The notes below the pieces were generated by a model. It ran no database searches, was not told where the DNA came from, and saw only the letters and a list, made by a program, of their open reading frames with translations. A stretch of DNA of 64,000 nt, taken from positions 1 through 64,000 of IMG/VR virus record IMGVR_UViG_3300042878_001023; one strand, written 5' to 3'. How positions within the stretch are numbered: the stretch's first letter is position 1; the number at the start of each line of letters is the position of its first letter. The stretch is from a virus (lineage: Duplodnaviria; Caudoviricetes). A program made the position numbers and the translations under genes. This document shows positions 19,904-37,482 of the stretch, in pieces.

Positions 19904-22900
19904 TTATACACAGTTAAAAGGATCAGATTCAAAACCTAGTGATGCAAGAATTTCATCATCTGATATACCTTGTTTATTACTTATTACTTCAGTTATGTCT
20001 TTGTAAGCTGAAGAACCAGGATTTAAATAACCTAACTCTTCAAATAACCTCTTACTTAAATATACAAATAATTCTTTAGGCATTTTCTTAGCATCACCTA
20101 TTCCTGCTTTAGGAAGTGCTATTTTGTTACCTAAGTCTTTAGCATTTTTAAGCTCCTGAATTTTTCTATCAAAATAGTTTTTCACACTTTGATATTTATC
20201 AGCTGCTAAGTTACTAAAGTTATCAAAATTACTAGTCAAACTTGTAACAAAAGGTAAGGCAGTATCTTTGGATACTAATCTTAAATAGCCTTGTCCAGGA
20301 AGATCTTTATTATTATCTATTTCAAACTTGGTTGCATTATAAACAAAACCTACTGTAGAATTAGTACTGGTTAATTTTTTGTAGAAAGCAGCACTGTCAT
20401 CTTTTGAATCATCAAACAAAAAGATGTTAGGATCTGGTGTAGTAATAAGATCATTAGTTTGTTCTTCAACACTAGTAGATAGTTGAGTATCATAATCAGT
20501 AATATCTTCAGATTTAATATCCTCAAGCATTTGTTTATATGATTCAGCATGTCTATCTATAGTTTCATCTGATACATTTGCTCTGTTTTCTCCTCTTGCT
20601 AGTTGTGCTTTAATTCTTTGTTTGGCTAACTTAGCATCTAAAGGCATAAGTTTATATTGAATATTAGCATTAGGTATTGCTTTTTTAATAGCTTCAACAA
20701 AAGGTCTTCTTTTATCTTTAGTAAGATTGGTAGTATCAAACACTACTTGTTTACCTTGTTTAATAGCTTGTATAGCTCTATTAGCTGCTTCAATATAAAT
20801 CTCTTTGTCTTTAGATTTATTATTTATATCTCCTGTAAATTCAACTCTCATTGCATCAGGTTCTATGACTACTAAATTTTCTTGAGGTAAAGACTTTATA
20901 AATGTAGATTTTCCACTTCCTGAAGTTCCTATAGGTAAAATAACATTAGCTTCAACACTAATAGATGGTTGAGTAGCTTTTTGAGTAGCTGCTTCAGTAC
21001 CTACTTTACTAAAGTCAATGTCTGTAAAATAGTTCTTAAATCTGTTTTTGTCTTTATTTTTATAACTATTCTGAGCATTAAACTTGTAATAAAAATCTCT
21101 TAATACTCTTTCAGCTTTATCCGGATTAGAAAGAAGTTCAGTAAAGTCTTTAACAGCATCATCCATAATGTTTAAGAATGGTTCTGTACTTACATAAGGA
21201 ACTAAGTTAGATTTAGTTTTATTGATACCTGATTGCAAGTATGCAAACAAAGGAAGTCTAGAGAATAAGTAAGAAATGTTTTCTATATCTTGGTCACTTA
21301 AACTTAATTCATTAGCTAATCCTTTTAACAAAACAGGATCTGCTAAGTCTGTTAAATTTTTAGTGTAAATATTTGCTTTGATGTTGTCAATATCACGGTC
21401 AATCAAGTTAAGATTGAACATAGTATTTTGAGTATTGTTATCAAGCTCTAGTTTTGATAACACATCAAATTTATTTACAAGCTTAGGATTATTTAAGATT
21501 ATGTCATATAATCTTACAGCAAAAGCATTTTTTGGATCACTAAATAAATGATTAACATTGAAAGTATTATCAAGTGCTCTGTTTGCTAGAAACTCTTCAT
21601 AAGCTGTTTTTTCCAAACCTGTTTCTGCAATTGGATAAATAGATCTTAAATATTCTCTTTCCATTACAAATCTAGTATAAGCTTGTGTATTGTTTCCTTT
21701 AGCAATTGTAAATGTATTTGCTGGAACAGGATGTAATCCTAACTGTGAATAATAGTTTGGTTCATTTGCTTTTTCTTTCCATACACCTGATGTAAATTCA
21801 TCTTCTAAATTTTTAAGATTATAAAACAAAGTTTTGCTACCATCTTTATTTGTTTTTACAAAAGCTCCAAACTTATCAGAAAGCATCTGTTTACTTGGTA
21901 ATTCTTTTGCATCATATGATACATAACCTTTTTTAATGTCTGTTTTAGCTAATCTGTTTTGGAAAATATAACTTACTAAATCATTTCTAAAAGTATTCAA
22001 ATAATTATCTCTACCACTTTCACCAAATGTAGATTTTATATTTTCTCTTAAAGCATTGGAATCATCTTCAGATTTAATAAATCTACGGATTGCATCATTG
22101 TATCTTAATTTAAACAATGGTGCAGCTAAAGACAATGCAAGTTTGTTATTAAAGAATGAGCTAATAACTGAGTTGCTCATCAAAGCAGATATTATTGGTT
22201 GTAACTCAGGATTATTTTCTAAGTTTTCTAATCTTGCTTCTGATGTCTCAATATCAGATAATACTGACTTAGTATTAGTATCTGGATTAGAGTTCATCTT
22301 AACCTGTGTAATACCCTTAATCTGGTCTTCAATATCCAAGTAGTGTAAGAACATAGTTAATGATAAGTCAGAAGATTTAAAGTTATTATTCTTTTTAGAA
22401 TCTTGTATTAACTGTAACATTTCTTTTTCTGTGAAATGTTTATCTTTTCTATCCTTCATTAATTTATCAAATAACTTACGTCCTGTTTCAAATCTAACAT
22501 CTGCTTTACCTTTAGCTGGTAATACAGAAGGATTGAAATATTTATTAATGATATTAGAAGCTGATTGGAATTTAACAAATGCCTTTTCTTCTGGAGCTTT
22601 TCCTAATACAGAAGCAAATGTAGATTTAGCAAGACGCTGTTCATCTACATATTCTCTTACTAATGGTTGTGATACAAAGTAAATAGCTTCTTTAACAGGA
22701 ACACCAGCTTTAATTAAATATAACAATATAGGTGCTACCTCATAGTTACCTTGGATAAAGAAAATCCAGGCATCTTTTTCAACATCCACCCAGCCGTTCA
22801 TTGCTTGGGAGAATATATCTGCTATTTTATTAACATTGTCAACATCATATAAATTAGATAGGGAAATTCTATCCTTTCCATTAACATTTCTTACATTATG

Positions 22901-25900
22901 TCTTAAACCTATAACAGTACTTCTTGTTAATTTTGAATAACTATTTGTATATGTTTCTGGCATCAAAGCTCCAATAGAGTTTAACAATACATTCATTGTA
23001 TTTTCTATAGCACCTAGACCTAATGTTTTCTTACCAACAATATTAGATTCATGTTTATATAAGTTATAAAGAGGTTCTAATACTCTTGTTGCACTGATAA
23101 TTTTCTTACCTTTTTCAGGTTCTGTTGTTGTATCAGTCATATAATTTTTGAATGGATCGTATTCCATCACATCTGCAGCTAGTTTGTCTGCTATATCTTT
23201 CAATAAGAAAGTACCATTCGGTGTAACAAGAGAAACAAAGTTTTGTGGAAGCTCAAGTATTTCTTTAATATCATTCATTAAGTCATTCTCTACTCCTGCT
23301 TTTTGTTGTTTGAAAGCTTTTGTTATGGATTCATCTTCATTATCTTTGATGTTCTGTAGAGAAGCTTTGAGCTCCGCAGTGTTTTTATAGGTTCTTTCTT
23401 TAAGCTTACCATCCATGTCTATGTTAGTCATAAAGATTGTAAGTTTATCAATATCAAAGTCACCCCCTGACTTAGCAACTATCTCTGCTGGAGGAATGAT
23501 TATATTACCTGCTTGTGGAGGTAAGAATTCATATACTTCCATGAACTCCATAGAGTTTAGACCCTGAACCGGAATCCTAACCCCTACAAGAGTTATTGCT
23601 TTTCTGTTAGCACCATCATTTGCATCTAACCATTCATCATCTTTGATTGCTTTGTTTAATGTATAAATATCTCCAATAGTTGCCCCTTTATATTCAAGAT
23701 TCAACAAGTTAGCATAGTCCCCCTGTAATGCAATCATAACCTTCATTGCTGCAGTTTTACCATCCGCCTTCTTATGATAAGTAGGAAGTAAGTTACTACC
23801 TACCCATTTTTTCTTATCTGCATCAGTTGCATTTCTAAAATTAGGAGACTCTGTAAGGTTATTTTCATAAAAAGCAGAAGATACTTGTACAAGTGGTTCT
23901 CCTTTTACTTTTTGTTTGATAACTCTTTTGTTAATCAGAGATAATAAAAGCTTCTCAATTTTTAATGCTTCTGGGTGTAATGATAAATCATGTAATAACT
24001 CACCACTATCAAGAGCATCAATAAAGTTGAGCATTTCATCACTGTAAGATTCTTCTCTATCTAAGTTATTTCTAACAAGTGACAATAATTTACCTATACT
24101 TTCTTTGTCTCTTGCTTTGTATTCACCGTCAGGAGTTTCATCAAAACCAATTTCTTCTAATAACTCTAATTTAACTAACTCAGTATAATCAGATACATTA
24201 TCAAGATATCTTTTTACTAATGGTGATACTACATCTTTCTCATCAGGAGAATTGATTACACCATTTTCATACAAGTTATCTAAAACTAACTTTCTCATCT
24301 GAGTAGAGAAAATAGATTTACCTTTATACTCAGAGTTAACTTCTGTTTGATTCTTTAAGAACTCTGTGAAGATTACATTTTTTGTAAATGGTTCATTCAT
24401 AAGAATATTACCATTATCATCATATATTTCATCACCAGTCCCTAAATGTCCAACTTTAGAACCTGATTCAAATACAACATAGTCTACATCATTAAGCATC
24501 ATTTTTTGGTGCAAATCATATAGTGGTGTACCTTTTTTAGCTACTCCTGGTATAATTGGAGCAAGTGAGAATTTATGGAATGAAGTAACAGGTAAGCCTG
24601 TAGTTTCCATAGCTCCACAATACTGTAATTTATATGGAGGAAAATACTGTACTATATCTTCTACAGATACTTCTTCACCATTAGCTAACTTTTTATACAA
24701 CTCTTCTTGTTCTGGTAACCAGTTACCTTCAAGATTTTTAAGTATTCTATATGATTCAAAACTGATGTGGCCTTGACCATCACCAATCTTCATATCATTA
24801 TATTCTTTTAAAGCAGTTTTTGCTAATTCTTTTGCCTTAGTTTTATCACCAAATCTTTTTGTATAGTCTTTTACAAGAGCATCATAGTACTCATCATAAT
24901 ACTCAGACTTTTTTATAACTCTTTCTTTTATGATTGCTGTAGTTAGAGTACCGTCAAATGGTTTACTTGGTGCTATTTTATTAAACAACTTAGGCATTTT
25001 ATTTACAAAACTTCTTGACTTTAAATCAGAAGCAAAACCTAAACCACCAGAACCAAAACCAGCATTTCTTTTATGGAATTCTTCTTTAGCATGATTGTAT
25101 TGTGCTAAGTCTCCATAACCAAGAATAGCAGTTTCAAACTTGTGAATCCAAGAGTTGTAAGCATATGCTTTCATCAGTGTTGTATCAGATTCATCTACTG
25201 TAAGTTCAACACCTTTGTTTTCAATTCTACCTCTTAAAGCAGGATCAATAAACTTTGTTTTATCAAGTCTTTCTTTCAACTCAGTTGTTATACTGTTAAA
25301 ATACTTAGCAACATCTTTTCTTATTTCTTCTGTTAGCTTAGCATTGTCATCATATACATCTGAGAAATCAAAATCAGATTGATTATCAGCAACAGCTTTA
25401 TCTACTATAGCATAGATTTTTGCTTGAGTATCTTTAGATAATACATCTTCAAAAGCAGCAAGAGCTTGACCAGCCATTACTACTTCTCCTGTTTTTCTAT
25501 TTACAGTTCTTGTATAACCTGTAAATTGAGAATATTTTTCTAAATCAGAACTAAATTTAAAAATTCTATTTACCTCACCAGTCAAGTATCCAGATAAAAT
25601 ATCAAATGCATAATCTTCACCAGAGTTTGTAGTTGGTAAAAACTTCTCTATATCAACATATAAGTTTTTAGCATTTTTATTATCATAAGTTTTAAGACCA
25701 TTTTTTAATACAATACCTTGTGACATTTGTTTAGAAGCATGTCTCATGAACTCTTCTACACCACTCATCAACATAGTATGAATCTCTTGCAAGTATTTAC
25801 TTGTAGCATCCATTGATGCTGTAGAAATACCTTCTTGATTATTAGTTGTAGTGTCAATTAACTGTGTTCCAGCCACATTTTGAATTACCAATGTATTATC

Positions 25901-28900
25901 TTTTTTACCACCAGGGTTATTCACAGCCAACAAATCATTAAATAATGATTTTAGCAATACAGAATGTCTTGTGTAAGTATTGTTGTCATATGCTAAGTAA
26001 CGCATATGTCTAAACAAACCATTTGGATCAGCATCAGGATTTGTAAGTTCTTGCCAAGATTTTGCATGGTTTAAAGAAGTCATGATTCTTGTAAAAGTAT
26101 TATCCAAGAAATGCTCCCACACTCTATTTCCTTCAGGACTAACTGCACTAAAGTTAGAATACTTATCAGAAAATCTTACTTGTAGATTAGCAAGTTCTTT
26201 AATTCTTGAAGAAGAATCAAATTTTTGACCCGGATCTAATGTCTTAGGCAAACTTGTTTTTAAATATGCAAGAGGATTTCTTAAAAAAGTAAATTTTTCA
26301 GGATCATATGTTTTATTTATATGCTCTAAAGAATCAAAGATGTGCCCAATTGCAAACTTATTTACAAAGTTAGGATCAGATATAACACTAGCAATTGTTG
26401 GATTAGATGTATCCATCACAATACCTAATGCATTTAAGAACTCAAGAACATTTTTAGAATTTATGTTATTCTTAAAATATTTTACAAAATTGTTTAAATC
26501 TAATACTCTTTGTCCTGATTTATTTTCAACAATAAATTTAGAATCAGCAACAGTAAGAAAAGTTATTTCCCAATCTTTTAAAACTTTTGATCTATCAAAA
26601 TCTGTTCTTTGTACTCTTGCTTCTGCCAATACAGCATCAGCAGTTTTAGTAATATTTAAATTTAACTGTACATATGATAGTCTAGGTTTTTTAAGATCTT
26701 GCCAGAACTTAGTTTCAATATCAAACTCAGCCTTGTCATTGTAATCAGTATTCTGCGGGTTAGGCAAATAAGATAACAACTGTAAAAACTCAGGATTATC
26801 TTTTATGTTTTCTGAAAGTCTTTTATACATCTCAGATTTGTCAAAAGAACCTGCTAATACTTTAGCAACCTTACTCCACATTTCTCTTTCATCTAAAAGC
26901 ATGTATAAACCTGTTTGAGGGTCTACTTCATATTCAATAGATAAAACTTGTTTACCCTCATCATTTACAGTAACTTTTGTTTTATTTCTGTCTACTTTGT
27001 AGATACTGGATAAAATAGTTTTAGTCTCTTGACTAGCTGCTTCTCTTGAAGAAAAAATGTTACCACCGTCAAGTCTAACAATTCTAGAATTATTTATGTC
27101 AGTCGGATCTTCTTCTAGCTCAACAAATTTATTTGCTAAAATTTTGAATCTAGAATTCTGCATGTGAAAAGCAATAACACCTTTCTGATCTTTACCGTCA
27201 ATTGTTGTATCAATATCTCCAAAATTATCTAGCATTCTTCCTAAAAATGGAAGTTGATTTAATTCCAATGTATCAATGTCACCACCTTCAGCTGCAGTTT
27301 TTGCAAAGTCTTCTCTTAATTGATTAAATCTTTCAGATATTTTCTTTTCTAAAACCTTATACAAATGCTTTCTATTTGCATTAGTTTGTAATACTCTAAC
27401 TGGTGCAGAAGAACTATTTCTTTGTTGGTTTACAGAATTAAAAATGTCAGGAATTAAACTATCCAAATAGCTTACAATTTTTAATGATTCAGCAGAATCA
27501 AATGGTTCATACTTAGTAGCAACATCCTTTACAGAAGTAATAGCTTTAGCTCTATTCAACTGAGTAAACATCATGTTGTCAGTAGAAGGTTGCATATCTT
27601 GTAATAGCTCTGGATTCTCAGAGGCTCTGTACAATTTGTCAAACAATTCTTTTACTGAAGCAATGTCTCTTGGTCTTGTAGCTAAGTCTTGTTTGCTTAC
27701 TCTACCTATGAGGTTCTGTAGGAACTGGTACATTCTTCTGAATACTGTCCCCAAAAATCCTTTAGGTGCTTCTTTTTTACCTCTGCTTCTTGCATAATCT
27801 CTAAAGTCTTCTGCAATATCTTCTTCAATATCAAAGAATGATTTATTAGCCCACTTCGGTTGACCCTTTAATTCATTGTATAACTTAATCTTTTCATCTC
27901 TTGTTAAAAATAACTGAGAGAATCCGTGCCATGCTTCATGGTATAAATCTACAGCAGTACCACCATCACCTTCATAAAGTGTGATACCAGTTCCTGTAAA
28001 TGTTGCAAATGCATTTGAGTTTACAATCTGAGTTATTCTGTTTAAGCTAATATACTTACTCAAAGGAGAGTTAGCCCACCAAGCTTCAGCTGCTGCTTTG
28101 TCAGCTGCAGTAGTGAAGACTTTATCTAAAAAATTATCTAAAGCTTTACTTCTATCTAAATTAAAACCATTAGCATCTTCTTCTGACAAATCATTCTTAA
28201 ATGGTGTAAACCAATTGTGCTCAATAATAACTTCAACATTCTCAGCAGCTGCTGGTACTTTAGTAGTTCTTTTTTTCTGAACAGCTTTTGATTTTTCTTT
28301 AACAACTTTCTCAGCAACTTGATTCTTTTCAGCCTGAGTTTTTTTCCTAACTGGAGCTCCAGTTTCAGAGTCTAAAGCAATATCAAAAAATGACTTTGGG
28401 TTTTCTGTAAACTGACCAGGTACAGCATAACTTAAATAAGGATTAAATCCTGAAATCATTGAGCCACCCTCATTAGTAAATTGTGGCTTTGCATACTTTA
28501 ATACTACTTCATCAATGTAGTCTTTTTCAACAGGTCTAAACTTATCTCCAGAAATTTCATAATCTGTGTAAGTCTCTTTATCTTTATAACTAGTTGAAAT
28601 ATTTACATTAGCTCCAATTGAACCCTTGTCACCAAACTTAATTGCTTTAGGTAAATGCTCTGCAATCTTATCTCTTACAGCAGTAGTAAAGATGGCATCT
28701 CCTTCAAACTTTTCATCATTAATTGTTAAAGTAAGTGGTCCACCAGCAGCTTTATCTAAAAAAATGTTGTTTTTATTTTTAACACCTTTTTTACTTATTT
28801 TTTGATTATTTAAAAATACTTTGAAATAAGCTATTCTTTCATCATCAGACAAAGTTCTACCTTTATTTGTAGCTTTAGTTGTAATAACATCAGCTACTTT

Positions 28901-30190
28901 ATTAGCAAGTTCTTGATCAAAATTACCTCTCTGTATGTTTACAGGCATACTAATTTCACCAAAATTGGGACTATTATAAGTAATAAAAAATTGAGCAAAA
29001 CCTTGACTTAAATCTTTACTTGATATAATTTTTGCATCCTTAATAATTTCTCTTGTAAGTTTTACAGTTTTTTGTAAATCATTGTTGATTGATTTTCTGC
29101 TTGCTGAAGTTAATATACCAAAACTACCACCATTAATTTGAGTAATATAAGAAGTATTGTTGTCTATAATATCTTTACGCATATTATAAACACCATTCAT
29201 GTTTTCTGTTTGATTTTCTAAAACTTCTTTACTAGACATACCAAAGCTGCTTTTTGCAATTTTACTTGCTGCAACCAATGTATTTTTATACATTTTACCA
29301 AGGTTATGATAAATCAAAAACAAAGCAGGTTGATTTTTATTTAGCTTATCTTCTAACAAATAAGGTTTTCTTATAAATTGATAAACAACTGTACCTTTAT
29401 CTTCAGTAGTTAAATTACCATTTTCATCAAAGTATAAGTAGTTACCATCAATATCTGTAACAACAGCAAAAACACCTCTGTAAGATTTAGCAGTTGCAGT
29501 TTTATGATTAGATAGTTTATGCTTATTTTCAAAGCTTTCTGAAGACATCATTTTTAAAAAAACTTCTGTATCATCAATAACAGGATTGTTTTGATCAATA
29601 GTTTTCTCATTAGAAGCTTTGATAATTTTTTTAATTACTATTTCAAAAACTTTTTTATCTTCAGCTAAAACATCATCTTGAATTTGTGTATTTGGATCAT
29701 CTGGATTTTTATCTTCTGCAAATTGAAATGTTGTAACATTAGGATTTTCAACTTTAGCTTTACTCATTTTTTCTAATACAGAATCATCAGGATCAGTAAT
29801 CTCCAAATTATCTAATTGAAAGTTTTCATGTTCTAACTCACTCTTTAATTCTTTCTTAGATTTTTTTCTTACAGGTTCAGTAACATATTTCTTAACATTA
29901 TCAATGTCATTAAATTCTTCTCTCAAGTTCATTATAACTTTAGGATCAAAATCAGTTTTAGCTAATATGCTGTTTATTTCATCATCACCCTGCACAGAAT
30001 GTATAGTAAGAGGAATGATTTGAGCATATTGTAAAGCTTTTTCTTCACCAGCAGCTTTCTCAATTCTTTGGTATATATCTTTTATATATGCCTTTAAATC
30101 AAAACTTTCTGAAGGTTTAAGTCCAGAAAGTTTTTTATATGTTATTTTTCTTAAATCTGAAAGCTGAGTTTCATTGAGTGAACATATCAT
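19904..30190 (-). CDS. virion RNA polymerase polyprotein (crAss-like, phi14:2 gp66 family)
   Basis: Catalytic SGGDFDIDKL (DFDID at 23447-23461), GVRIPVQG, DGQG and KFSL motifs. Zincin HEAWH at 27926-27940 and a C-terminal P-loop insert. Start placed at ATG 30190, overlapping the upstream TAA (TAATG). Confidence 0.9.
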   Translation of the reverse strand: MICSLNETQLSDLRKITYKKLSGLKPSESFDLKAYIKDIYQRIEKAAGEEKALQYAQIIPLTIHSVQGDDEINSILAKTDFDPKVIMNLREEFNDIDNVKKYVTEPVRKKSKKELKSELEHENFQLDNLEITDPDDSVLEKMSKAKVENPNVTTFQFAEDKNPDDPNTQIQDDVLAEDKKVFEIVIKKIIKASNEKTIDQNNPVIDDTEVFLKMMSSESFENKHKLSNHKTATAKSYRGVFAVVTDIDGNYLYFDENGNLTTEDKGTVVYQFIRKPYLLEDKLNKNQPALFLIYHNLGKMYKNTLVAASKIAKSSFGMSSKEVLENQTENMNGVYNMRKDIIDNNTSYITQINGGSFGILTSASRKSINNDLQKTVKLTREIIKDAKIISSKDLSQGFAQFFITYNSPNFGEISMPVNIQRGNFDQELANKVADVITTKATNKGRTLSDDERIAYFKVFLNNQKISKKGVKNKNNIFLDKAAGGPLTLTINDEKFEGDAIFTTAVRDKIAEHLPKAIKFGDKGSIGANVNISTSYKDKETYTDYEISGDKFRPVEKDYIDEVVLKYAKPQFTNEGGSMISGFNPYLSYAVPGQFTENPKSFFDIALDSETGAPVRKKTQAEKNQVAEKVVKEKSKAVQKKRTTKVPAAAENVEVIIEHNWFTPFKNDLSEEDANGFNLDRSKALDNFLDKVFTTAADKAAAEAWWANSPLSKYISLNRITQIVNSNAFATFTGTGITLYEGDGGTAVDLYHEAWHGFSQLFLTRDEKIKLYNELKGQPKWANKSFFDIEEDIAEDFRDYARSRGKKEAPKGFLGTVFRRMYQFLQNLIGRVSKQDLATRPRDIASVKELFDKLYRASENPELLQDMQPSTDNMMFTQLNRAKAITSVKDVATKYEPFDSAESLKIVSYLDSLIPDIFNSVNQQRNSSSAPVRVLQTNANRKHLYKVLEKKISERFNQLREDFAKTAAEGGDIDTLELNQLPFLGRMLDNFGDIDTTIDGKDQKGVIAFHMQNSRFKILANKFVELEEDPTDINNSRIVRLDGGNIFSSREAASQETKTILSSIYKVDRNKTKVTVNDEGKQVLSIEYEVDPQTGLYMLLDEREMWSKVAKVLAGSFDKSEMYKRLSENIKDNPEFLQLLSYLPNPQNTDYNDKAEFDIETKFWQDLKKPRLSYVQLNLNITKTADAVLAEARVQRTDFDRSKVLKDWEITFLTVADSKFIVENKSGQRVLDLNNFVKYFKNNINSKNVLEFLNALGIVMDTSNPTIASVISDPNFVNKFAIGHIFDSLEHINKTYDPEKFTFLRNPLAYLKTSLPKTLDPGQKFDSSSRIKELANLQVRFSDKYSNFSAVSPEGNRVWEHFLDNTFTRIMTSLNHAKSWQELTNPDADPNGLFRHMRYLAYDNNTYTRHSVLLKSLFNDLLAVNNPGGKKDNTLVIQNVAGTQLIDTTTNNQEGISTASMDATSKYLQEIHTMLMSGVEEFMRHASKQMSQGIVLKNGLKTYDNKNAKNLYVDIEKFLPTTNSGEDYAFDILSGYLTGEVNRIFKFSSDLEKYSQFTGYTRTVNRKTGEVVMAGQALAAFEDVLSKDTQAKIYAIVDKAVADNQSDFDFSDVYDDNAKLTEEIRKDVAKYFNSITTELKERLDKTKFIDPALRGRIENKGVELTVDESDTTLMKAYAYNSWIHKFETAILGYGDLAQYNHAKEEFHKRNAGFGSGGLGFASDLKSRSFVNKMPKLFNKIAPSKPFDGTLTTAIIKERVIKKSEYYDEYYDALVKDYTKRFGDKTKAKELAKTALKEYNDMKIGDGQGHISFESYRILKNLEGNWLPEQEELYKKLANGEEVSVEDIVQYFPPYKLQYCGAMETTGLPVTSFHKFSLAPIIPGVAKKGTPLYDLHQKMMLNDVDYVVFESGSKVGHLGTGDEIYDDNGNILMNEPFTKNVIFTEFLKNQTEVNSEYKGKSIFSTQMRKLVLDNLYENGVINSPDEKDVVSPLVKRYLDNVSDYTELVKLELLEEIGFDETPDGEYKARDKESIGKLLSLVRNNLDREESYSDEMLNFIDALDSGELLHDLSLHPEALKIEKLLLSLINKRVIKQKVKGEPLVQVSSAFYENNLTESPNFRNATDADKKKWVGSNLLPTYHKKADGKTAAMKVMIALQGDYANLLNLEYKGATIGDIYTLNKAIKDDEWLDANDGANRKAITLVGVRIPVQGLNSMEFMEVYEFLPPQAGNIIIPPAEIVAKSGGDFDIDKLTIFMTNIDMDGKLKERTYKNTAELKASLQNIKDNEDESITKAFKQQKAGVENDLMNDIKEILELPQNFVSLVTPNGTFLLKDIADKLAADVMEYDPFKNYMTDTTTEPEKGKKIISATRVLEPLYNLYKHESNIVGKKTLGLGAIENTMNVLLNSIGALMPETYTNSYSKLTRSTVIGLRHNVRNVNGKDRISLSNLYDVDNVNKIADIFSQAMNGWVDVEKDAWIFFIQGNYEVAPILLYLIKAGVPVKEAIYFVSQPLVREYVDEQRLAKSTFASVLGKAPEEKAFVKFQSASNIINKYFNPSVLPAKGKADVRFETGRKLFDKLMKDRKDKHFTEKEMLQLIQDSKKNNNFKSSDLSLTMFLHYLDIEDQIKGITQVKMNSNPDTNTKSVLSDIETSEARLENLENNPELQPIISALMSNSVISSFFNNKLALSLAAPLFKLRYNDAIRRFIKSEDDSNALRENIKSTFGESGRDNYLNTFRNDLVSYIFQNRLAKTDIKKGYVSYDAKELPSKQMLSDKFGAFVKTNKDGSKTLFYNLKNLEDEFTSGVWKEKANEPNYYSQLGLHPVPANTFTIAKGNNTQAYTRFVMEREYLRSIYPIAETGLEKTAYEEFLANRALDNTFNVNHLFSDPKNAFAVRLYDIILNNPKLVNKFDVLSKLELDNNTQNTMFNLNLIDRDIDNIKANIYTKNLTDLADPVLLKGLANELSLSDQDIENISYLFSRLPLFAYLQSGINKTKSNLVPYVSTEPFLNIMDDAVKDFTELLSNPDKAERVLRDFYYKFNAQNSYKNKDKNRFKNYFTDIDFSKVGTEAATQKATQPSISVEANVILPIGTSGSGKSTFIKSLPQENLVVIEPDAMRVEFTGDINNKSKDKEIYIEAANRAIQAIKQGKQVVFDTTNLTKDKRRPFVEAIKKAIPNANIQYKLMPLDAKLAKQRIKAQLARGENRANVSDETIDRHAESYKQMLEDIKSEDITDYDTQLSTSVEEQTNDLITTPDPNIFLFDDSKDDSAAFYKKLTSTNSTVGFVYNATKFEIDNNKDLPGQGYLRLVSKDTALPFVTSLTSNFDNFSNLAADKYQSVKNYFDRKIQELKNAKDLGNKIALPKAGIGDAKKMPKELFVYLSKRLFEELGYLNPGSSAYKDITEVISNKQGISDDEILASLGFESDPFNCV
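20464..20975. repeat. 26-bp direct repeat pair (20464-20489 and 20950-20975) flanking an AAA_33/PNK-like kinase domain
   Basis: cttcaacactagtagatagttgagta versus cttcaacactaatagatggttgagta: 24/26 identical, 486 bp apart, in frame. Confidence 0.85.
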
Positions 30191-33100
30191 TAGTAACAAG
30201 TTTTTGAGTTATCTTCTAAGTTTTTGAATAAATCATCTTCATTTGATTCCTTTGCTTCTTTATAATCAGAAGCTTCAGTTTCTTTATTTTCAAAGAATGT
30301 TTTAGCATCAGTTTTAGTTTGTTCTGAAGCATCAACAGTTTCTTGTGATGGTTTTTCTGTCTGAGTCATTTGAGTTTCTTTTGAAGGTTTAACAAAATTA
30401 TTTTGAAGCTCCTCTTCAGTTACTTCTCTTTTTGTATCTCCATACTTTAATATAACAGAATTTTCTTTAATATCTACTACTTGTACCGGAGAATCTTGTT
30501 CTGTAAAGTTAGTAATATCTTGTAAAAGATCACCTTTTTTCAATGAATTGATATCAACATTATTCTCTAACTCAGCTAATCTATTTTGATATGCAGACTC
30601 TATTTGAGCTAACTTGAGTTTATTCTTAGACATCTTAGACATCAACTCTTTTTTCTTATTAAATAACTCAGTAGTATCTTTGATTTTTGCAAAGGCTTCT
30701 GTTGCTTTATTTACTTCAGGAGTTAGTTCAGCAAGCTCATCAATAGAAGAATTAACTATTTTTTGGAGTTCATTAAAAGGGATTTCTTTTGTTTCTCCTG
30801 CTTCCTCCATTCCAGAAACTCCCTCTGTTGTTGATCCGGTAGGGCTTTGAATCTCAGATACACCAATGTTTGATTCATCTCCGGATTCTGCTCCGAAGAT
30901 TTTGTTAAGGTCTTGTTCATAATCTTGTTTTTTAGCAATTCTATTTGTTTCTGTTAAGTTAATTAAAACTAAGTGATCAAGTAAATCTTTTAATACATTA
31001 ATTTGTCTATTGGTAGCAGCTACTCCAAAAGGATCATTACTATACATTTTAAAAGTTTCATATTCTTTTAATGCATCTATTGTTTTTTGGATACCATTTC
31101 TAAGTGCTTCTAACTTTTTAGCACCTCTACCTAATGCTGATATACCTTGTAGTCTTACTTCAGTTAGTTCTTTAGGAAGATTCTTTTGCATAATCATAGT
31201 TACCTCTTCCTGAACTTTAGGTGAGGCATCTGATAAACTATGTATTTTTTTAAGTTCTTTTTCTATGTCTTGAGGTTTAGTACCCAAGCTGTTTTTCTGA
31301 AAAGAATTTGGTAATCTGTTTAAAGCAAATATTACATCATTAGTATTACCCTCATAAATAAATACTTTGTCATCTGTAGATAAACTGTCTCTTTCTGCAT
31401 TAAGTCTATCAATCTCTTCTTTACCTTTATTGATTTTACTCAATATTGATTGAGGAGATAAGATAGCTAAATCTTGTTTTACTTTTTTGATTTGTGAAGC
31501 AGGAGCATTTTGTCTCTCTAATTCACTAAGTCTTTGTTGAAGATTAGCTTTTGCTGCATAAGTACCAGTAATCTTTTGTCTTAGTTTTGCAATTTTACTA
31601 TTGATAGCAAGTATGATGTTATCAATGTCTTCTCTTCTCTTATCATTTTTAAAATAAACCAGTTGGTTTATATCACCAGAAGGACTTCTTGATACAGTAT
31701 ACCTTACACCATTTACAATTGCTATTGTTTCATTCTCATCTTCAAATGCTGCATCAATAACTTGATTGTTGATTACAGAAATTTGACCAACTTTTTTTAC
31801 AGGAGTAATCAAAGATAAACCAACACTAGTAATTTCAGAAGAACCATTAGTTGCAGGCTTTCCTTCAGAAGTAACTGTATATATTTCTTTACCTTTTTTA
31901 GTCTTTTGTAAGTCATCAATTTGTTTTTGAATTTCTTCAGCTTTATCAGGATCACCGAATTCCCCTTTAGCAAAAGCCAAATCAGCCATCAATCCTGTTA
32001 AATTACCTTCTTCATCAATACCTCCTATCAAAGTTTCAGACATAGATTGTTCAAAACCTAAATCAACTTCAACTCCATATGACCCATCAGCTTGTAAAAT
32101 CAATGTTCCAATTCTACCATTGAAAACTACTTGTTTACCTACATTATCATTAAGTGTTAATTTAGATGTGTCAGATGTTTTTGTTTGTGTAGATGGTTTA
32201 ACTTTTTCAACTTCTTTTGTTTCTTCACCAGGTGTTTCAACTTCTGAAGAAATTTCAGGTGCAGACATAGTAATACCCTTACCTTCCACATCAGGTAAGT
32301 ATTCAAGCTCAAGTGTATTAAATAACTTAGCCGTGTTTGATACTAATGGTACTAACTCACTATCCCTAGTTTTTTCTCCACCAACAGTTACACTAGTAAC
32401 ATATGGTGTAGCATTTTTTAAAGTAATCCTCATTGGAAATAATGCAATCCTTGGAATAACTCCCGTCATGTTATGATACAAGTTTCTATAAATAGAAAGC
32501 TGAGCTCTATATGCAATATTTTTCCAGCTGTTTGGTTTGTTGAAACCATTCCATGATGTAGATGTTTTAATATCTACAATCATAATCTCACCTTTATTAT
32601 TAATCAAAACCATATCTGTTTCACCAGATGCACCATTTTCTAATAAATTTTTATCAAACAGTTTAACATTGTTTGTTAATGGTGTAAAATTTTGAGCAGT
32701 CAGACTTTCTCTAAATCTTGTAACAACACCTCTAATCCCAAACATTTCATCAAAAGCTTTCTCACTCATTATGTCTGAAATCTTAGCTTCTTTACCTTCA
32801 ATTTCTATAGTGTCACTATATTTGAAAGACTTCCAAGTACCAGTTCCAGCATCTATAGTAAAGAATGTTCTTACAGCAGCATCAAGATTAGTACCAGCTT
32901 CAGAGTTATTTGAGAATGCCTCTTTACCAATAAGCTTTCTAAAGTTTTCTTCAGTTGTGTTTTTTTCTAAAGAAGCTCTTATTCTAGCTTTTTTATCTTC
33001 TGTGTTTAACTGTTTATATGAATCCCTAGCTGCAATAGAAAATGCTTCCCAAGCTTTGTTAAAAGCATCTGAATCACCTTTTTTAATATGATCATTATAC

Positions 33101-36100
33101 ACACTAAAAAACACATTTACTATTTTGTCAACATTGTCATCTGAATAACCTGGTTTTTTTTCATCAGATAATTCAGTAGCAATACCATCAGAAATAGTAG
33201 TAGCTCTTGTAGTTAGTTTTGAATCAGGATCTCCTGCAAACTTTCTACCTATCTTGTTTCCATCTTCATCAAATACATCTTCAAGTTCATCTTGTTTACC
33301 TTGAACATTTTTTCTAAAACTGTTAAATACTTTTTCTGCTACACTTATAGGTTGTAACTTTCCTTGTTTGTACTGTAGGAAGGTTTTAAGTTTCTGAACA
33401 TCTTCACTGATTTCATTGATATCTTGTTCTGAAAGTTTAAATTCAGTAGAACCATCATTAAAGATTTTAGTCTTTAATGTAGCTTCCATTTTATCTATAA
33501 TAACATTTAATGTTCCTGTAGGCATACTAGCCTCAATTTTTATACTTTTAAAGATTCTAGAAGTTAATACAGGAGGTTTAGTTAAAGCTTCAGCTCTTGC
33601 TGCACCTTCTGTTTTTACCTGCTCATTATATTTTTTAAGTAATTCTAGACCTTCCTTCTCAATCCAGTTTTGTCTAATCTCTTCATATCTTTTGATATTA
33701 GTGTCCATTAAACTTTTTGGATCCATCTCAAGTTCATTAGTCAAATATGTATTAAATTCAGTATCAATCTGAGACTGAAGATCTTCTGGAAAATTAGCAT
33801 AACCCATTTGTGGAGTAAACTCATCAACAGTAGATTTGTCAACACCTTTTTCTTTATACTTATTAAGTATCTGATTTTCTAAAGCTGTATATCTTTCATT
33901 TATTTGACTTACTCTTTCTTCATTTACTTTAAAGCTTTTAGTACCCTCAATATCAGTCAAAGATTCTTTTTCTTTTTTAAGTACTTCTTTTTGCTCAGCA
34001 ATTTTTTCAGCTAATAATGTAGGAGATTTTTCAGATAAAACATATATTCTGAAAACTGCATTATCTATTGTATCTGGATCAGCTTTCTTAAATTTACGGT
34101 TGTAAATTGCATCAACAGCATCATTATCTATTTCATTAGGATTTAACTCTAACTCTTCTTTAGTCAACAACTCATCAGAAAGTTTTATTATTTCAGCTGA
34201 GTCAATAGGATCTTTACCTACTAGTTCTAATAAGTTCTGAAGCTTACCAATTTTTTCTGTTGCAGCTTTTTGATCTATTTCTAACTGAGCATTTGCTTCT
34301 TCAGCATCTTGGTTTTTTGCAGTTGCTTCTTGTACTGACATACCAACCTCATCAATAAAAGATTGATCATAGTCTTGAGCCGCAACTCTTAGTTCATCAT
34401 TTTTATCTTTTGTAAGATCTGTTAACTCATCATCCAGCTTTTGTTTTTCTGTAGCAGGATCACCAGCAGGTTTCTTTTGAGATAAACGGGCAGCTTGTAT
34501 AAATATTACTGCATATTTTTCATAAAGAACACTGTCTTTATTAATTACCATTTCTTTTGTGGTATCAATAAAATACTCTGGTAAATAGTTTTCAGGATCT
34601 TCAACAAATTTTGCAAATTCTTCTAAGTCAACAAAAATACCATCAGCAGCTAATGTGTTTAAGATTTCATTTCTTTCAACATTAGTAATCTCTTGATTTA
34701 CAATATCTTTATAGTATTCTTTTCTGTTGTCATACATTCTTTTCATCCAGTCAAAGTTTCTGTTTACACTTTCACGGAAACCTGCAGGATCTGCAAGAAT
34801 ATTTATGTACTTAGCAGTATTTAATTGTTCATGTTTTAAAAAGTGTATGTCAATTAATGAATCAAACAACTTTTTATGACCACCAAGATTATCAATTTCA
34901 TTTCTTAATGTAACTTTATTTTCTTCTGAACCAGCAATTGTTTCAAGTAAATTCTCAAATGCGTTAAAATACTCATTCATTTCAGGTGTTACAGTACCTT
35001 CATTAATTGCATTCAACAATAAATTAAGATTTTCTCCAGAATTACTATCCTGAGCTTTTTGAAATCTATCTAAAGCTTTTAATAACTCTCTCTTTTGTCT
35101 TACTTGAGCTACAGCTTCTGGTAAAGTTGATGTTTCTCCCGACTCAATATCTTGTTTTAAATAATTTATTTGTTCATTTAGTTTAACAGCATCAGTGATA
35201 ACATCAAAATTTGAAAATGGATTACTGGAAATTGATTTTAACTTATCCAGTTGTTTATACATATTACCTAATCTATCAATATGATCATCAAATGTAGACT
35301 GTAAAAAGACTAAGCTATTAATAGATTCTTCATAAGCTTTGTTATAAATTATAGCAGCAGTATATTCTGGAGATCCTTCTTTATACTGTTGTGGATCAAC
35401 ATAGTCTTTAAACTTATCTTTAGCCATTTTATATCTTGCTGCAGTTACTTTTGCTGAACCTATAACTTTATCAATATTTTGTAATGCTTTCTCACCTTGT
35501 CCTGGTTCTAATGACCAAGCTTGTTCTAACTCTTCAGGTGTAGTATTTTTATATTCTTTTAAGTTATCAAGAAAAGTATCATATGTACCTGTTCTTAAAG
35601 CAGTTTGAACAGAACTTTGGAATGCAGCAAACTCAGCATCTTTTAAAACTTTTGTTTCAACATTATCTGGATTGTCAACCATTTTAGCAGTCAACATCTG
35701 ATTTGAGTAGTTGTTTATTCTTGGGTCAAAAAAGTACTTTGCATTCTTATGCATGTTATTCAAAGAGTTAACTATTGCATCTGCTTGAGCTTCTCTTTGT
35801 TTTACATACTCTTCATTTACTGCTTTATCCTTAAAGATTCTGCTGAAGTTTTTAGTACCAAACTTAAACATCTTGCTTGGACCTTCCAACAAACTACCCA
35901 TCAAAAACCCAGATGCAAATGTTTCTCCACCTTGTGCATTTAATTGTTTGTCTAAACCATCAAACATTGCAGCTAACCCGTATCTGTAACCTCTTACAGA
36001 AGGATTATAAAAACTATCTACATAATATTTCTCAACAGCAGATGCTAATGCCTCCTGACTAATTTCTTGAATACCTTCCATTAAATTACCTTTAAAGTAA

Positions 36101-37482
36101 TTCAAGCCAAGTTTACCCCATTGCTTAGGGCTCTTTAATGCTTTAATAGAATTCTTTAAAGAAATTGCTTCTTTAGTATATGCTGCTTTTGCAATGTCAT
36201 CTGCAGGATTGAACATGATTTGAAACTCATTACCAACCTCACCTACAACTTTTCCAAAATTAAGTCTAGGTGCACCCTTTAAAAACTTTGCTCTTGTTAT
36301 AGAAGGAAATGCAACTTTGTTTGAATAGAATACTAAACCAGTATTGTAAAGTGTATTTTTGAAACCAGCTTTTTTAGAATCCAACATCATTTCTTGTTGT
36401 AATTCTATAGAAGGAGCTTTACCATGTTTTGCATAGTAATCATTGTATAACCTGTTATATACATTTTGCTCAGAAAAACCACCCTCTAATCTACCTTCAG
36501 ATAAGGCCATGTTTATACCCATGACATCATGCCAGAAAGCACCAGCAGTTCTTGCAGTTCTTGCAAGCTTGCTAACATCATCTGTTTCTTTTAATAACTT
36601 TACAGCATCTAAAGTATTTTCAAATGGGTTTATAAATTCAGCTGTTTTTTTACCTATTGTTCCTGCAGTATTCCAAAAGTTCTTAGCATTGTTTATATTT
36701 TTTAATGCCTGAAGAGATTTAGTAATTTTACCAATGTTCTTAGCAGATTGAAATAATGCTGAAGGAAGTTTAGTTAAAGCTTTCATACCTCCTAACGCAC
36801 CACCAAGAAGATTTAATTCTCCTCCAGTTGCTGCTCCAATAGCACCACTAACCATAGCTCCTTCTACAGCACCTTCAAGTAATATACCCGCGGAGTAAGA
36901 AACAGAGTTTAATAAGTTAGTAGCAAATCCACCTATACCACCTCTACTTGAGTATCCAATGGAATTGTAGTATTCATAATCTTTTGCTTCTTGTCTATCT
37001 GCTCCTACATCTCCAGAACCTAGGAGCTTACCGTAGGAATGTATAGGTGCTAAAAATCCTAATCCTAACATTGGTGCGGCAGAATGTTTCAACCATCTAC
37101 CCATGTCATCAAATGTGCTTGTATTTTGATTGTAAATAGCTTCATTATTTACTTGTGGATCAAAACCAATTCTGTTATAAGTATCTTGACCATAACCTTT
37201 ATATCTAGCTTTAAATGATGCACTAGAAGGACTGTTATCAAATGTAAATGTCTTACCATACTCATTGTCATCACGCAATGTAGTCTGAAGCATTTTTTGT
37301 TTTTGTATTACTCCTTGTACATGATCATTTAAATCTTCAACCGGATTAACAGACTTAGTAGCAATAGCAGGTTTATTTGGTGTTATACCAGCTGTAGCAT
37401 CATTAATATTTATTACCTTATTTGTAATAGATGCATTCTTTAAATCTAAACCTGAGCCAGAATTAATTATAGTCTTAGCCAT
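30190..37482 (-). CDS. giant virion ejection protein with PD-(D/E)XK nuclease-like domain
   Basis: 2430 aa. Gly/Ala-rich hydrophobic N-terminal region, MEGIQEISQ motif and GETDMVLI...IVDIKTS...YRAQLSIY. Confidence 0.75.
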   Translation of the reverse strand: MAKTIINSGSGLDLKNASITNKVININDATAGITPNKPAIATKSVNPVEDLNDHVQGVIQKQKMLQTTLRDDNEYGKTFTFDNSPSSASFKARYKGYGQDTYNRIGFDPQVNNEAIYNQNTSTFDDMGRWLKHSAAPMLGLGFLAPIHSYGKLLGSGDVGADRQEAKDYEYYNSIGYSSRGGIGGFATNLLNSVSYSAGILLEGAVEGAMVSGAIGAATGGELNLLGGALGGMKALTKLPSALFQSAKNIGKITKSLQALKNINNAKNFWNTAGTIGKKTAEFINPFENTLDAVKLLKETDDVSKLARTARTAGAFWHDVMGINMALSEGRLEGGFSEQNVYNRLYNDYYAKHGKAPSIELQQEMMLDSKKAGFKNTLYNTGLVFYSNKVAFPSITRAKFLKGAPRLNFGKVVGEVGNEFQIMFNPADDIAKAAYTKEAISLKNSIKALKSPKQWGKLGLNYFKGNLMEGIQEISQEALASAVEKYYVDSFYNPSVRGYRYGLAAMFDGLDKQLNAQGGETFASGFLMGSLLEGPSKMFKFGTKNFSRIFKDKAVNEEYVKQREAQADAIVNSLNNMHKNAKYFFDPRINNYSNQMLTAKMVDNPDNVETKVLKDAEFAAFQSSVQTALRTGTYDTFLDNLKEYKNTTPEELEQAWSLEPGQGEKALQNIDKVIGSAKVTAARYKMAKDKFKDYVDPQQYKEGSPEYTAAIIYNKAYEESINSLVFLQSTFDDHIDRLGNMYKQLDKLKSISSNPFSNFDVITDAVKLNEQINYLKQDIESGETSTLPEAVAQVRQKRELLKALDRFQKAQDSNSGENLNLLLNAINEGTVTPEMNEYFNAFENLLETIAGSEENKVTLRNEIDNLGGHKKLFDSLIDIHFLKHEQLNTAKYINILADPAGFRESVNRNFDWMKRMYDNRKEYYKDIVNQEITNVERNEILNTLAADGIFVDLEEFAKFVEDPENYLPEYFIDTTKEMVINKDSVLYEKYAVIFIQAARLSQKKPAGDPATEKQKLDDELTDLTKDKNDELRVAAQDYDQSFIDEVGMSVQEATAKNQDAEEANAQLEIDQKAATEKIGKLQNLLELVGKDPIDSAEIIKLSDELLTKEELELNPNEIDNDAVDAIYNRKFKKADPDTIDNAVFRIYVLSEKSPTLLAEKIAEQKEVLKKEKESLTDIEGTKSFKVNEERVSQINERYTALENQILNKYKEKGVDKSTVDEFTPQMGYANFPEDLQSQIDTEFNTYLTNELEMDPKSLMDTNIKRYEEIRQNWIEKEGLELLKKYNEQVKTEGAARAEALTKPPVLTSRIFKSIKIEASMPTGTLNVIIDKMEATLKTKIFNDGSTEFKLSEQDINEISEDVQKLKTFLQYKQGKLQPISVAEKVFNSFRKNVQGKQDELEDVFDEDGNKIGRKFAGDPDSKLTTRATTISDGIATELSDEKKPGYSDDNVDKIVNVFFSVYNDHIKKGDSDAFNKAWEAFSIAARDSYKQLNTEDKKARIRASLEKNTTEENFRKLIGKEAFSNNSEAGTNLDAAVRTFFTIDAGTGTWKSFKYSDTIEIEGKEAKISDIMSEKAFDEMFGIRGVVTRFRESLTAQNFTPLTNNVKLFDKNLLENGASGETDMVLINNKGEIMIVDIKTSTSWNGFNKPNSWKNIAYRAQLSIYRNLYHNMTGVIPRIALFPMRITLKNATPYVTSVTVGGEKTRDSELVPLVSNTAKLFNTLELEYLPDVEGKGITMSAPEISSEVETPGEETKEVEKVKPSTQTKTSDTSKLTLNDNVGKQVVFNGRIGTLILQADGSYGVEVDLGFEQSMSETLIGGIDEEGNLTGLMADLAFAKGEFGDPDKAEEIQKQIDDLQKTKKGKEIYTVTSEGKPATNGSSEITSVGLSLITPVKKVGQISVINNQVIDAAFEDENETIAIVNGVRYTVSRSPSGDINQLVYFKNDKRREDIDNIILAINSKIAKLRQKITGTYAAKANLQQRLSELERQNAPASQIKKVKQDLAILSPQSILSKINKGKEEIDRLNAERDSLSTDDKVFIYEGNTNDVIFALNRLPNSFQKNSLGTKPQDIEKELKKIHSLSDASPKVQEEVTMIMQKNLPKELTEVRLQGISALGRGAKKLEALRNGIQKTIDALKEYETFKMYSNDPFGVAATNRQINVLKDLLDHLVLINLTETNRIAKKQDYEQDLNKIFGAESGDESNIGVSEIQSPTGSTTEGVSGMEEAGETKEIPFNELQKIVNSSIDELAELTPEVNKATEAFAKIKDTTELFNKKKELMSKMSKNKLKLAQIESAYQNRLAELENNVDINSLKKGDLLQDITNFTEQDSPVQVVDIKENSVILKYGDTKREVTEEELQNNFVKPSKETQMTQTEKPSQETVDASEQTKTDAKTFFENKETEASDYKEAKESNEDDLFKNLEDNSKTCY

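Follow-up and report, generated by a model that had tools for sequence, protein, structure and literature searches.

Proteins delivered from the virion act before phage gene expression, so that the effector domains they carry are a phage's first move against host defences. The closest described class is that of the polyvalent proteins, presented in the main text of Iyer et al. (2017, PMC5512222) as giant, multidomain and DNA-delivered, with nucleic-acid- and protein-modifying effectors arranged in mosaic architectures; the same text counts the N4 virion RNA polymerase (RNAP) as a polyvalent protein and raises recombinational variability. RNAP proteins of crAss-like phages are packaged in the virion, according to the text of a preprint on phi14:2 (10.1101/2020.03.07.982082) and of the crAss001 structure paper, and the preprint gives DFDxD as the catalytic signature of these virion RNAPs. 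The locus described here lies in a stretch of 64,000 nucleotides (nt), hereafter the window, that comprises positions 1 to 64,000 of the Caudoviricetes record IMGVR_UViG_3300042878_001023. Its giant virion-protein gene P0001 (19904..30199, minus strand; 3431 amino acids (aa) from the first TTG) combines a crAss-like RNAP body with a C-terminal effector slot, in which a polynucleotide-kinase-like cassette stands between two copies of a linker of eight codons. With moderate confidence, we read this linker as a pool-wide connector that separates effector domains and doubles as a short stretch of homology for general recombination.

The window protein fits the class of Iyer et al. (2017): it joins an RNAP-motif body to a P-loop kinase, the corresponding slot of its orthologues holds AlkB-like, DUF7831 and cpYpsA domains, and its relatives carry ART-PolyVal (PF18760), cpYpsA, NADAR and AlkB-like domains. 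A homology search for giant proteins, in which 256 passed E ≤ 1e-5 and 120 were listed, gave a sample enriched in kinases because the search words included kinase; ART-PolyVal is precomputed for six kinase-bearing relatives among the 120 listed (including P0043, P0059, P0073, P0094 and P0104) and was not found in the window protein, and Pfam found no MPTase family at E ≤ 0.1 in the window protein, in the adjacent giant protein P0002 or in a neighbouring 2430-aa open reading frame (ORF). There are differences too. The main text of PMC5512222 mentions neither a linker nor crAss, and holds no DNA-conserved universal connector, empty-allele slot or near-identical transfer tracts; the kinases it treats are of the Ser/Thr/Tyr type, whereas the kinase here is of the P-loop polynucleotide-kinase type. 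The crAss-like virion RNAP gp66 of phi14:2 is alike in its DFDID motif, and the window protein is similar to crAss-like genes and lies in a block of three giant genes; gp66, however, has 2180 aa and no effector slot reported in the text of the preprint (10.1101/2020.03.07.982082), whereas the 3431-aa window protein adds the kinase cassette and a conserved C-terminal module.

By analogy, cassette exchange at this locus resembles the displacement of cassettes in polymorphic toxins. In those bacterial systems (CdiA with its VENN motif, Rhs with PxxxxDPxGL), recombination displaces C-terminal toxin cassettes, a short conserved peptide and its DNA mark the junction between constant body and swappable domain, and cassettes are exchanged horizontally, a terminal toxin being swapped together with a separate immunity gene. 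Here, in contrast, the cassettes are internal and stackable, bracketed on both sides, followed by a constant C-terminal module and without an immunity partner, and their carrier is a phage virion protein. Integron cassettes (attC x attI, IntI) share with the locus gain, loss and stacking at a defined place and a short repeat at each junction; unlike them, the locus has no integrase and no attC-like folded site, and its units are protein domains joined in frame, where integrons carry promoterless genes. The literature covered, which left supplements and subscription journals aside, contained no description of the linker and no paper pairing Crassvirales with polyvalent proteins. New here are a DNA-conserved universal connector, an empty-allele slot in a crAss-like RNAP protein, and a near-identical transfer tract.

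A linker conserved at the DNA level

The original prediction, made from the letters of the window, described a kinase domain framed by two in-frame 26-nt direct repeats, and this much is borne out. The copies lie at 20464-20489 and 20950-20975, agree at 24/26 positions, are spaced by 486 nt (162 codons) and are both in frame within the minus-strand ORF 19904..30199. They are the sole direct 26-mer pair at two or fewer mismatches in the window, none of 20 dinucleotide-preserving shuffles yielding any, and the whole virus record of 121,857 base pairs (bp), with a CheckV completeness of 100%, holds only these two copies at three or fewer mismatches and none of a reversed-pattern control. The in-frame unit is 24 nt long, the 26-mer being this unit plus one base on each side, and reads ACT CAA YYA TCT AYT AGT GTT RAA, or TQ(P/S/L)S(T/I)SV(K/E). 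On the minus strand, the left copy (20951..20974) is ACT CAA CCA TCT ATT AGT GTT GAA, encoding TQPSISVE at aa 3076-3083, and the right copy (20465..20488) is ACT CAA CTA TCT ACT AGT GTT GAA, encoding TQLSTSVE at aa 3238-3245. As had been noted, both mismatches are non-synonymous and the third positions are identical throughout; codon bias alone would give the two copies the same codons at their six common residues with P = 0.008.

The linker is specific neither to this junction nor to the virion RNAP gene in which it was first noticed. The exact pattern ACTCAAYYATCTAYTAGTGTTRAA has 62 matches in 52 IMG/VR contigs, all 62 in the TQ.S.SV frame and inside genes, none free-standing, with the consensus ACT CAA (C/T)CA TCT ACT AGT GTT (G/A)AA = TQ(P/S)STSV(E/K). 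Position 3 is P in 37, S in 23 and L in two of these, and position 8 is K in 36 and E in 26. Two or three copies occur in 9/52 contigs, at spacings of 396-1392 nt that are each time a multiple of three. Ten cassettes are enclosed between two linkers: three AlkB-like, one NADAR, one DUF7831 and five with no Pfam family over the cut-off. Overall, the sequences next to the copies form at least 33 clusters downstream and 49 upstream, and in 24 of the 52 contigs the host ORF is similar to the P0001 backbone, at only 21-83% aa identity; among the remaining host ORFs, one is like the 2430-aa neighbour, one like P0002, and 26, mostly on short loci, like none of these.

A scan with all third positions free, unbiased in this respect though confined to given Ser codon families and to Pro at codon 3, returned 49 matches, comprising 36 canonical copies, three family members with one synonymous change and ten unrelated matches that are high in guanine and cytosine or in short frames. 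Synonymous variants are therefore rare, at 3/39 family copies; a direct comparison of third positions between linker and adjoining modules is circular on loci selected by the pattern. Together, the codon-bias test and the degenerate scan argue that the copies are the same DNA by descent or homogenisation rather than convergent peptides, in support of the DNA-level conservation first proposed for the window pair.

At the protein level, an AlphaFold2 (AF2) model gives a per-residue confidence (pLDDT) below 50 at both linkers and of 62-93 in the domains that adjoin them: the left copy falls within a segment below 50 (model residues 1-39), and the right copy occupies residues 195-202, of which 196-202 are below 50. 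Since these low values lie between folded domains, the linker peptide is predicted to be a disordered, flexible spacer.

The linker DNA was also considered as a folded site. The inverted TCAAC/GTTGA arms that had been pointed out are indeed present, and yet weak: in the right copy they form a 5-bp stem of -1.9 to -2.2 kcal/mol (z -0.1 to -0.3), only 12/62 copies elsewhere keep both arms, and there are no compensating changes. A hairpin or attC-like structure was accordingly rejected.

A variable slot between conserved modules

The identification of P0001 as a virion RNAP gene is upheld by a DFDID motif (23447..23461, minus strand; aa 2247-2251) and by homology to Crassvirales RNAP genes. A tblastn search with aa 1500-2500 matched 105 phage records, most of them crAss-like, with identities of 20-28% and a lowest E of 1e-24; the matching part is aa 1800-2500, and some records are annotated 'putative RNA polymerase'. 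By analogy with crAss-like RNAP orthologues that are virion components, we infer that P0001 is packaged in the virion and delivered to the host with the DNA.

Two parts are common to the orthologues, the upstream flank (to ...NRFKNYFTDI(D/N)F...) and a C-terminal module of 186 aa (C-module); what stands between these is wholly different. In the window, the backbone flank ends in GTEAATQKA (20975..21001, minus strand) directly upstream of the left linker, ATQK(A/V) at this point being common to the empty allele L018, to L019 and to P0011; the C-module (EQTNDLITT...DPFNCV; 19907..20464, minus strand) is present in all slot alleles. Aligning orthologous C-termini, as the original prediction had proposed, gives 23 of the 120 listed giant proteins with both flank and C-module. 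Their slots hold a kinase in eight cases (one being the window's own protein) and other content in nine, and are empty in six, with only 13-22 linker residues. According to precomputed Pfam assignments, the nine slots with other content include an AlkB-like domain (PF13532) in P0008, P0014, P0051 and P0098 and DUF7831 in P0014, the remaining five having no recognisable family.

The DNA of related loci presents the same range. Other domains are found in L016 (AlkB-like and DUF7831), L021 (cpYpsA, stacked with an unknown domain that bears an HExxH motif) and L017, L019 and L022 (no Pfam family). Locus L018 is an empty allele at the DNA level: the start of its single linker, ACTCAACCA..., can be aligned with either window copy, so that relative to L018 the window has an insertion of 486 nt. 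Diverged 'resident' forms of the linker, TQPATEAVE and TQPQAEAEVE, adjoin the C-module in relatives. The closest comparison is L016, which is 97.1% identical to the window over 5264 nt upstream and 756 nt downstream and carries, in place of window 20472-20985 (514 nt), 1738 nt that encode DUF7831 and an AlkB-like domain with an unassigned part between them; judged from this alignment, the two are related by a strain-level swap. The gain, loss and stacking of domains first proposed for this junction thus have their counterparts in relatives, where empty, alternative and stacked alleles all occur, and the motif itself recurs well outside the window.

The fold of the C-module gives little guidance: its AF2 mean pLDDT is 67.2, the best Foldseek match (E 0.017) and the best VIA match (Z 6.4) are in the noise range, the VIA matches being phosphatase-like, macro-like and CbiL folds, Pfam DUF7831 falls below the cut-off at E 4e-4, and an ESM Atlas search with the module returned no usable match.

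The kinase and its spread between phages

The cassette (20489..20950, minus strand; aa 3084-3237) was first described as AAA_33/polynucleotide-kinase-like, and Pfam, PHROG, sequence and fold matches concur. Pfam places AAA_33 at 20534-20944 (aa 3086-3222, E 1.8e-16), a PHROG polynucleotide kinase matches at E 1.3e-12, and the Clostridium thermocellum polynucleotide kinase domain matches in sequence at E 9.5e-6, the alignment pairing the P-loop, D-x-x-R and D-x-T-N of both. The GSGKST, D-A-M-R and Arg-rich stretches of the cassette align with this enzyme, and supply the Walker A Lys/Ser, the Asp with a nearby Arg and the Arg-rich lid that we take to be the catalytic set of polynucleotide kinases (PNK). 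In the AF2 model the domain has a pLDDT of 75-93, and the C. thermocellum enzyme 4gp6 is the top Foldseek match (E 4e-9, TM (target) 0.69-0.71), followed by Pnkp1, mammalian PNKP and T4 PNK; a score on Zeta_toxin lies exactly at the Pfam cut-off. Whilst the C. thermocellum Pnkp kinase and T4 PNK are thus the best sequence and fold matches with aligned motifs, identity is about 20-23%, and in P0001 the cassette has no fused phosphatase or ligase partner. Given its domain family and its slot-mates (AlkB-like, cpYpsA and DUF7831, with NADAR in linker-bracketed cassettes elsewhere), the most likely role of the cassette is that of a nucleic-acid 5'-kinase which enters the cell along with the genome and serves repair or counter-defence.

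Judged by sequence comparison, kinase and linker DNA are shared between phages with deeply diverged backbones. Between P0005 and the window protein, identity is 98.1% over the kinase but 48% over the N flank and 46% over the C-module; for P0006, P0007 and P0013 the corresponding values are 90-92%, 45-48% and 41-47%. At the DNA level, the window matches L116, the metagenome locus of P0005's gene, over a tract of 447 nt with three mismatches (99.3%; 20465..20911, minus strand), which opens at the P-loop Lys codon (20911) and closes on the final base of the right linker (20465). Left of the tract, the kinase of L116 has about 80% identity, immediately right of it the two sequences are unrelated, and flanking gene sequence is about 65-72% identical. 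Because the tract includes the right linker up to its last base, with all 24 nt and the rare CTA codon following the kinase identically in L116, this linker arrived together with the kinase. The left copy lies towards the backbone, and L017, which carries a different cassette, has a near-identical copy at that junction. The recent duplication offered as one origin of the repeats, like a target-site duplication, is consequently set aside, the two copies having different partners in relatives; on this comparison they differ in history and were not duplicated on insertion.

The boundaries of shared sequence coincide with the linkers more generally. Beyond the proteins with both flanks, the kinase is carried by a further 94 of the 120 listed, in unrelated contexts and positions. 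In nine viral loci with unrelated flanks, DNA homology to the kinase spans only query nt 392/398 to 854/862, and as the window linkers occupy nt 376-399 and 862-885 of the same query, homology stops at their inner edges. Across the 52 loci, all chosen for the linker, 143/425 internal ends of DNA matches at 85% identity or above fall inside a linker or no more than 10 nt away from one, where uniform placement would give 3.3. On the same loci, the four haplotypes formed by codons 3 and 8, which are 15 nt apart, are all present (25, 12, 9 and 14 copies), and codon 8 tracks the downstream module at a modest p = 0.029 whereas codon 3 does not (p = 1.0), a pattern that gives modest support to crossovers inside the linker. 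A second kinase context, of about 87% identity, is found in the same lake samples (runs X1 and X2), so exchange partners co-occur.

Some kinase copies elsewhere are broken or differently joined. In L012/L044 (IMGVR_UViG_3300033067_000713), and likewise in P0113 and P0029, the kinase is interrupted within its C-terminal helix region by about 410 nt encoding another domain, and then resumes. L013/L048 (IMGVR_UViG_3300008266_000277) has a kinase copy in a 148-aa frame that ends after about 70 kinase residues, and since DNA homology runs past the frame end this copy is probably frameshifted or decaying. Other recurring connectors, GVSELFESNPELANAVYEALGFKSK, ITPQQKQQAQQLYSQYLDTIFPDSKVKDIVYH and ELGSKQDIEGFKKFV, flank the kinase in dozens of proteins (P0017-P0104), ITPQQKQQAQQLYSQYLDTIFPDSKVKDIVYH standing before the ART-PolyVal Pfam match in several.

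Recombination functions and competing readings

The complete 121,857-bp record gave no match to Phage_integrase (PF00589) or Resolvase, the PF00589 search detecting its positive control in 14/14 genomes, and none to RecT, ERF, HNH or HNH_3. The sole recombination-type function among those searched is a Sak4-like AAA_24 protein outside the window (G000:C1:119009-119581, E 7.9e-29). Two genes encode GIY-YIG nuclease domains (window 36-1034, plus strand, with one domain match at C1:42-284, and G000:C1:106806-107060; E 9.7e-13 and 3.5e-13), and from their sequence these proteins may be homing endonucleases.

In the reading given at the outset, the linker would play two parts. As a peptide, it would be a flexible spacer between the effector domains, each folding by itself, that are found in the tails of giant virion proteins of freshwater crAss-like phages, and as DNA it would be a 24-nt island of identity between otherwise unrelated modules. 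Recombination, homologous or by single-strand annealing, with the phage's Sak4-like AAA_24 protein or host RecA as candidate machinery, would resolve inside the linker, whether the two linkers belong to co-infecting phages or to a single gene, and a domain would thereby be swapped, inserted, stacked or precisely deleted in frame. The window slot is a hypervariable site between the conserved RNAP-bearing body and the conserved C-module, and exchange would likely proceed by general rather than site-specific recombination.

Several points weigh against this reading. Firstly, 24 nt is short for efficient RecA-type recombination. Secondly, the left break of the L016 swap lies 11 nt upstream of the left linker, where L016 has no canonical copy; with breaks outside canonical linkers, whole-slot swaps can evidently use the long conserved flanks. 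Thirdly, the strict linker peptide occurs in just 12 of the 120 listed giant proteins, most kinase junctions having other connectors. Fourthly, modules adjoining canonical linkers are themselves nearly identical at synonymous sites (2/90, 3/55, 6/58 and 19/149 codons differ), and because their divergence is as low as that of the linker, a young, fast-spreading cassette pool could explain the identity of the linker DNA. Lastly, the choice of loci for the breakpoint and haplotype tests counts here, as do the assembled contigs of four runs (X1, X2, X7 and X9), which show no joints, indels or 486-nt deletion; these are Logan contigs from which rare variants are dropped, uninformative either way, and X7 and X9 cover the stretch only in part.

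These same observations lend some substance to a passive linker, a mere flexible spacer with recombination, legitimate or illegitimate, occurring anywhere, selection retaining the junctions that fall between domains, and DNA identity reflecting the recent descent of a spreading pool. The low synonymous divergence of adjoining modules, the L016 breaks, the 108 of 120 listed kinase-selected proteins without the strict linker and the predicted disorder would all suit it. We nevertheless hold it to be a lesser possibility, as this one 24-nt unit is found next to at least 33 different sequences downstream and 49 upstream, in proteins whose backbones share only 21-83% identity, which makes the linker far more widespread than any one module, and despite this wide spread it shows almost no synonymous change (3/39). 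Nor would a passive spacer lead one to expect a 99.3% tract that ends at the exact last linker base, or four haplotypes across 15 nt.

A stronger version of the recombination reading, in which the linker is a dedicated and selected signal, with domain-level cassette exchange actively maintained at the DNA level, possibly driven by a GIY-YIG nuclease or the Sak4-like annealing protein, so that diverged phages of one community could trade, stack and lose injected effector domains in frame, and the peptide perhaps also a cut site for freeing each domain after injection, seems to us rather unlikely. We are similarly doubtful that proteolytic release is what the linker is for, although a phage protease cutting it to free effector domains in the virion or after ejection, the alternative that the original prediction had named, would be compatible with either recombination reading. 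A conserved interdomain peptide with predicted disorder would be a suitable substrate, P0001 and P0002 each show, on inspection by eye, an HExxH motif (aa 754 and aa 211, respectively), and the text of the crAss-like RNAP preprint (10.1101/2020.03.07.982082) proposes cleavage of fused polyproteins and places a zincin-like protease domain in a neighbouring protein. Against this, Pfam found no peptidase family at E ≤ 0.1 in P0001, P0002 or the 2430-aa ORF, the two HExxH regions align at E 0.54 only, positions 3 (P/S/L) and 8 (K/E) vary freely, contrary to a strict acidic P1, selection on the peptide leaves identical codons unexplained, and the available text of the crAss001 virion paper mentions neither proteolysis nor cleavage. 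Highly improbable, finally, is a dedicated DNA site of the integron-like kind first suggested, with the 24-mer recognised either by a site-specific recombinase or by a homing-type endonuclease triggering cassette gene conversion: exact DNA conservation, sharp breakpoints and two encoded GIY-YIG proteins would agree with it, but the complete genome has no tyrosine or serine recombinase match and none to HNH or HNH_3, the hairpin is not significant and keeps both arms in 12/62 copies, no observation ties the GIY-YIG genes to the site, and all 62 copies are in frame inside genes with none free-standing.

On the preferred reading of a connector that also serves general recombination, the locus is a model for asking whether short shared linkers steer phage recombination at the level of the protein domain rather than the gene. 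With its empty, single and stacked alleles, the slot shows how an effector repertoire can turn over fast, from a cassette pool common to deeply diverged crAss-like phages in which one connector recurs letter for letter at junctions. Candidates for counter-defence in this pool are the polynucleotide-kinase-like domain, AlkB-like, NADAR, cpYpsA, DUF7831 and several unknown domains, and the linkers offer natural domain boundaries for expressing each of them singly.

The phage and the neighbouring giant genes

The phage belongs to an environmental (freshwater) crAss-like lineage without a close relative among 50,697 deposited phage records, against which a blastn search with 19904-21500 gave zero matches. 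In a tblastn search of cultured-phage records the kinase alone matched, at 27-36% identity in 35 Bacillus phage records. Parts of the stretch occur in 22 runs (X1-X22, from 19 studies) of lake, freshwater, wetland, soil and unspecified metagenomes.

P0001 is the middle of three consecutive giant genes. Its database version P0003 starts at an ATG at 30190 and has 3428 aa at 100% identity, and a phmmer search of solved structures gave no match to P0001. The next giant gene, P0002 (13968..19901, minus strand; 1977 aa), encodes a LysM peptidoglycan-binding domain at aa 1654-1693 (window 14823-14942, Pfam E 2.2e-8). Around aa 113-129 (window 19517-19563) it has another variable slot, which is 'empty' in the window and in L021 and is filled with extra domains of about 0.8 kilobases (kb) in L017 and about 1.5 kb in L018/L019, built from modules that elsewhere flank the kinase. 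The HExxH motifs spotted by eye are HEAWH in P0001 (aa 754; 27926-27940) and HEFSH in P0002 (aa 211; 19257-19271); a zincin protease in these proteins was rejected as a candidate, the motifs having no Pfam family and a BLASTP alignment of their two regions reaching the E of 0.54 given above.

A cysteine near the C-terminus recurs among the giant proteins. It falls within the last three residues in 69 of the 120 listed, and in 47 of 94 distinct tails, where 0.21 proteins would be expected from an overall cysteine frequency of 0.0006. The tail of P0001 reads ...FNCV (19907-19912) and that of the 2430-aa neighbour (30190..37482, minus strand) ...SKTCY, the near-terminal cysteine of the latter being its sole cysteine; anchoring, processing or a packaging signal are possibilities.

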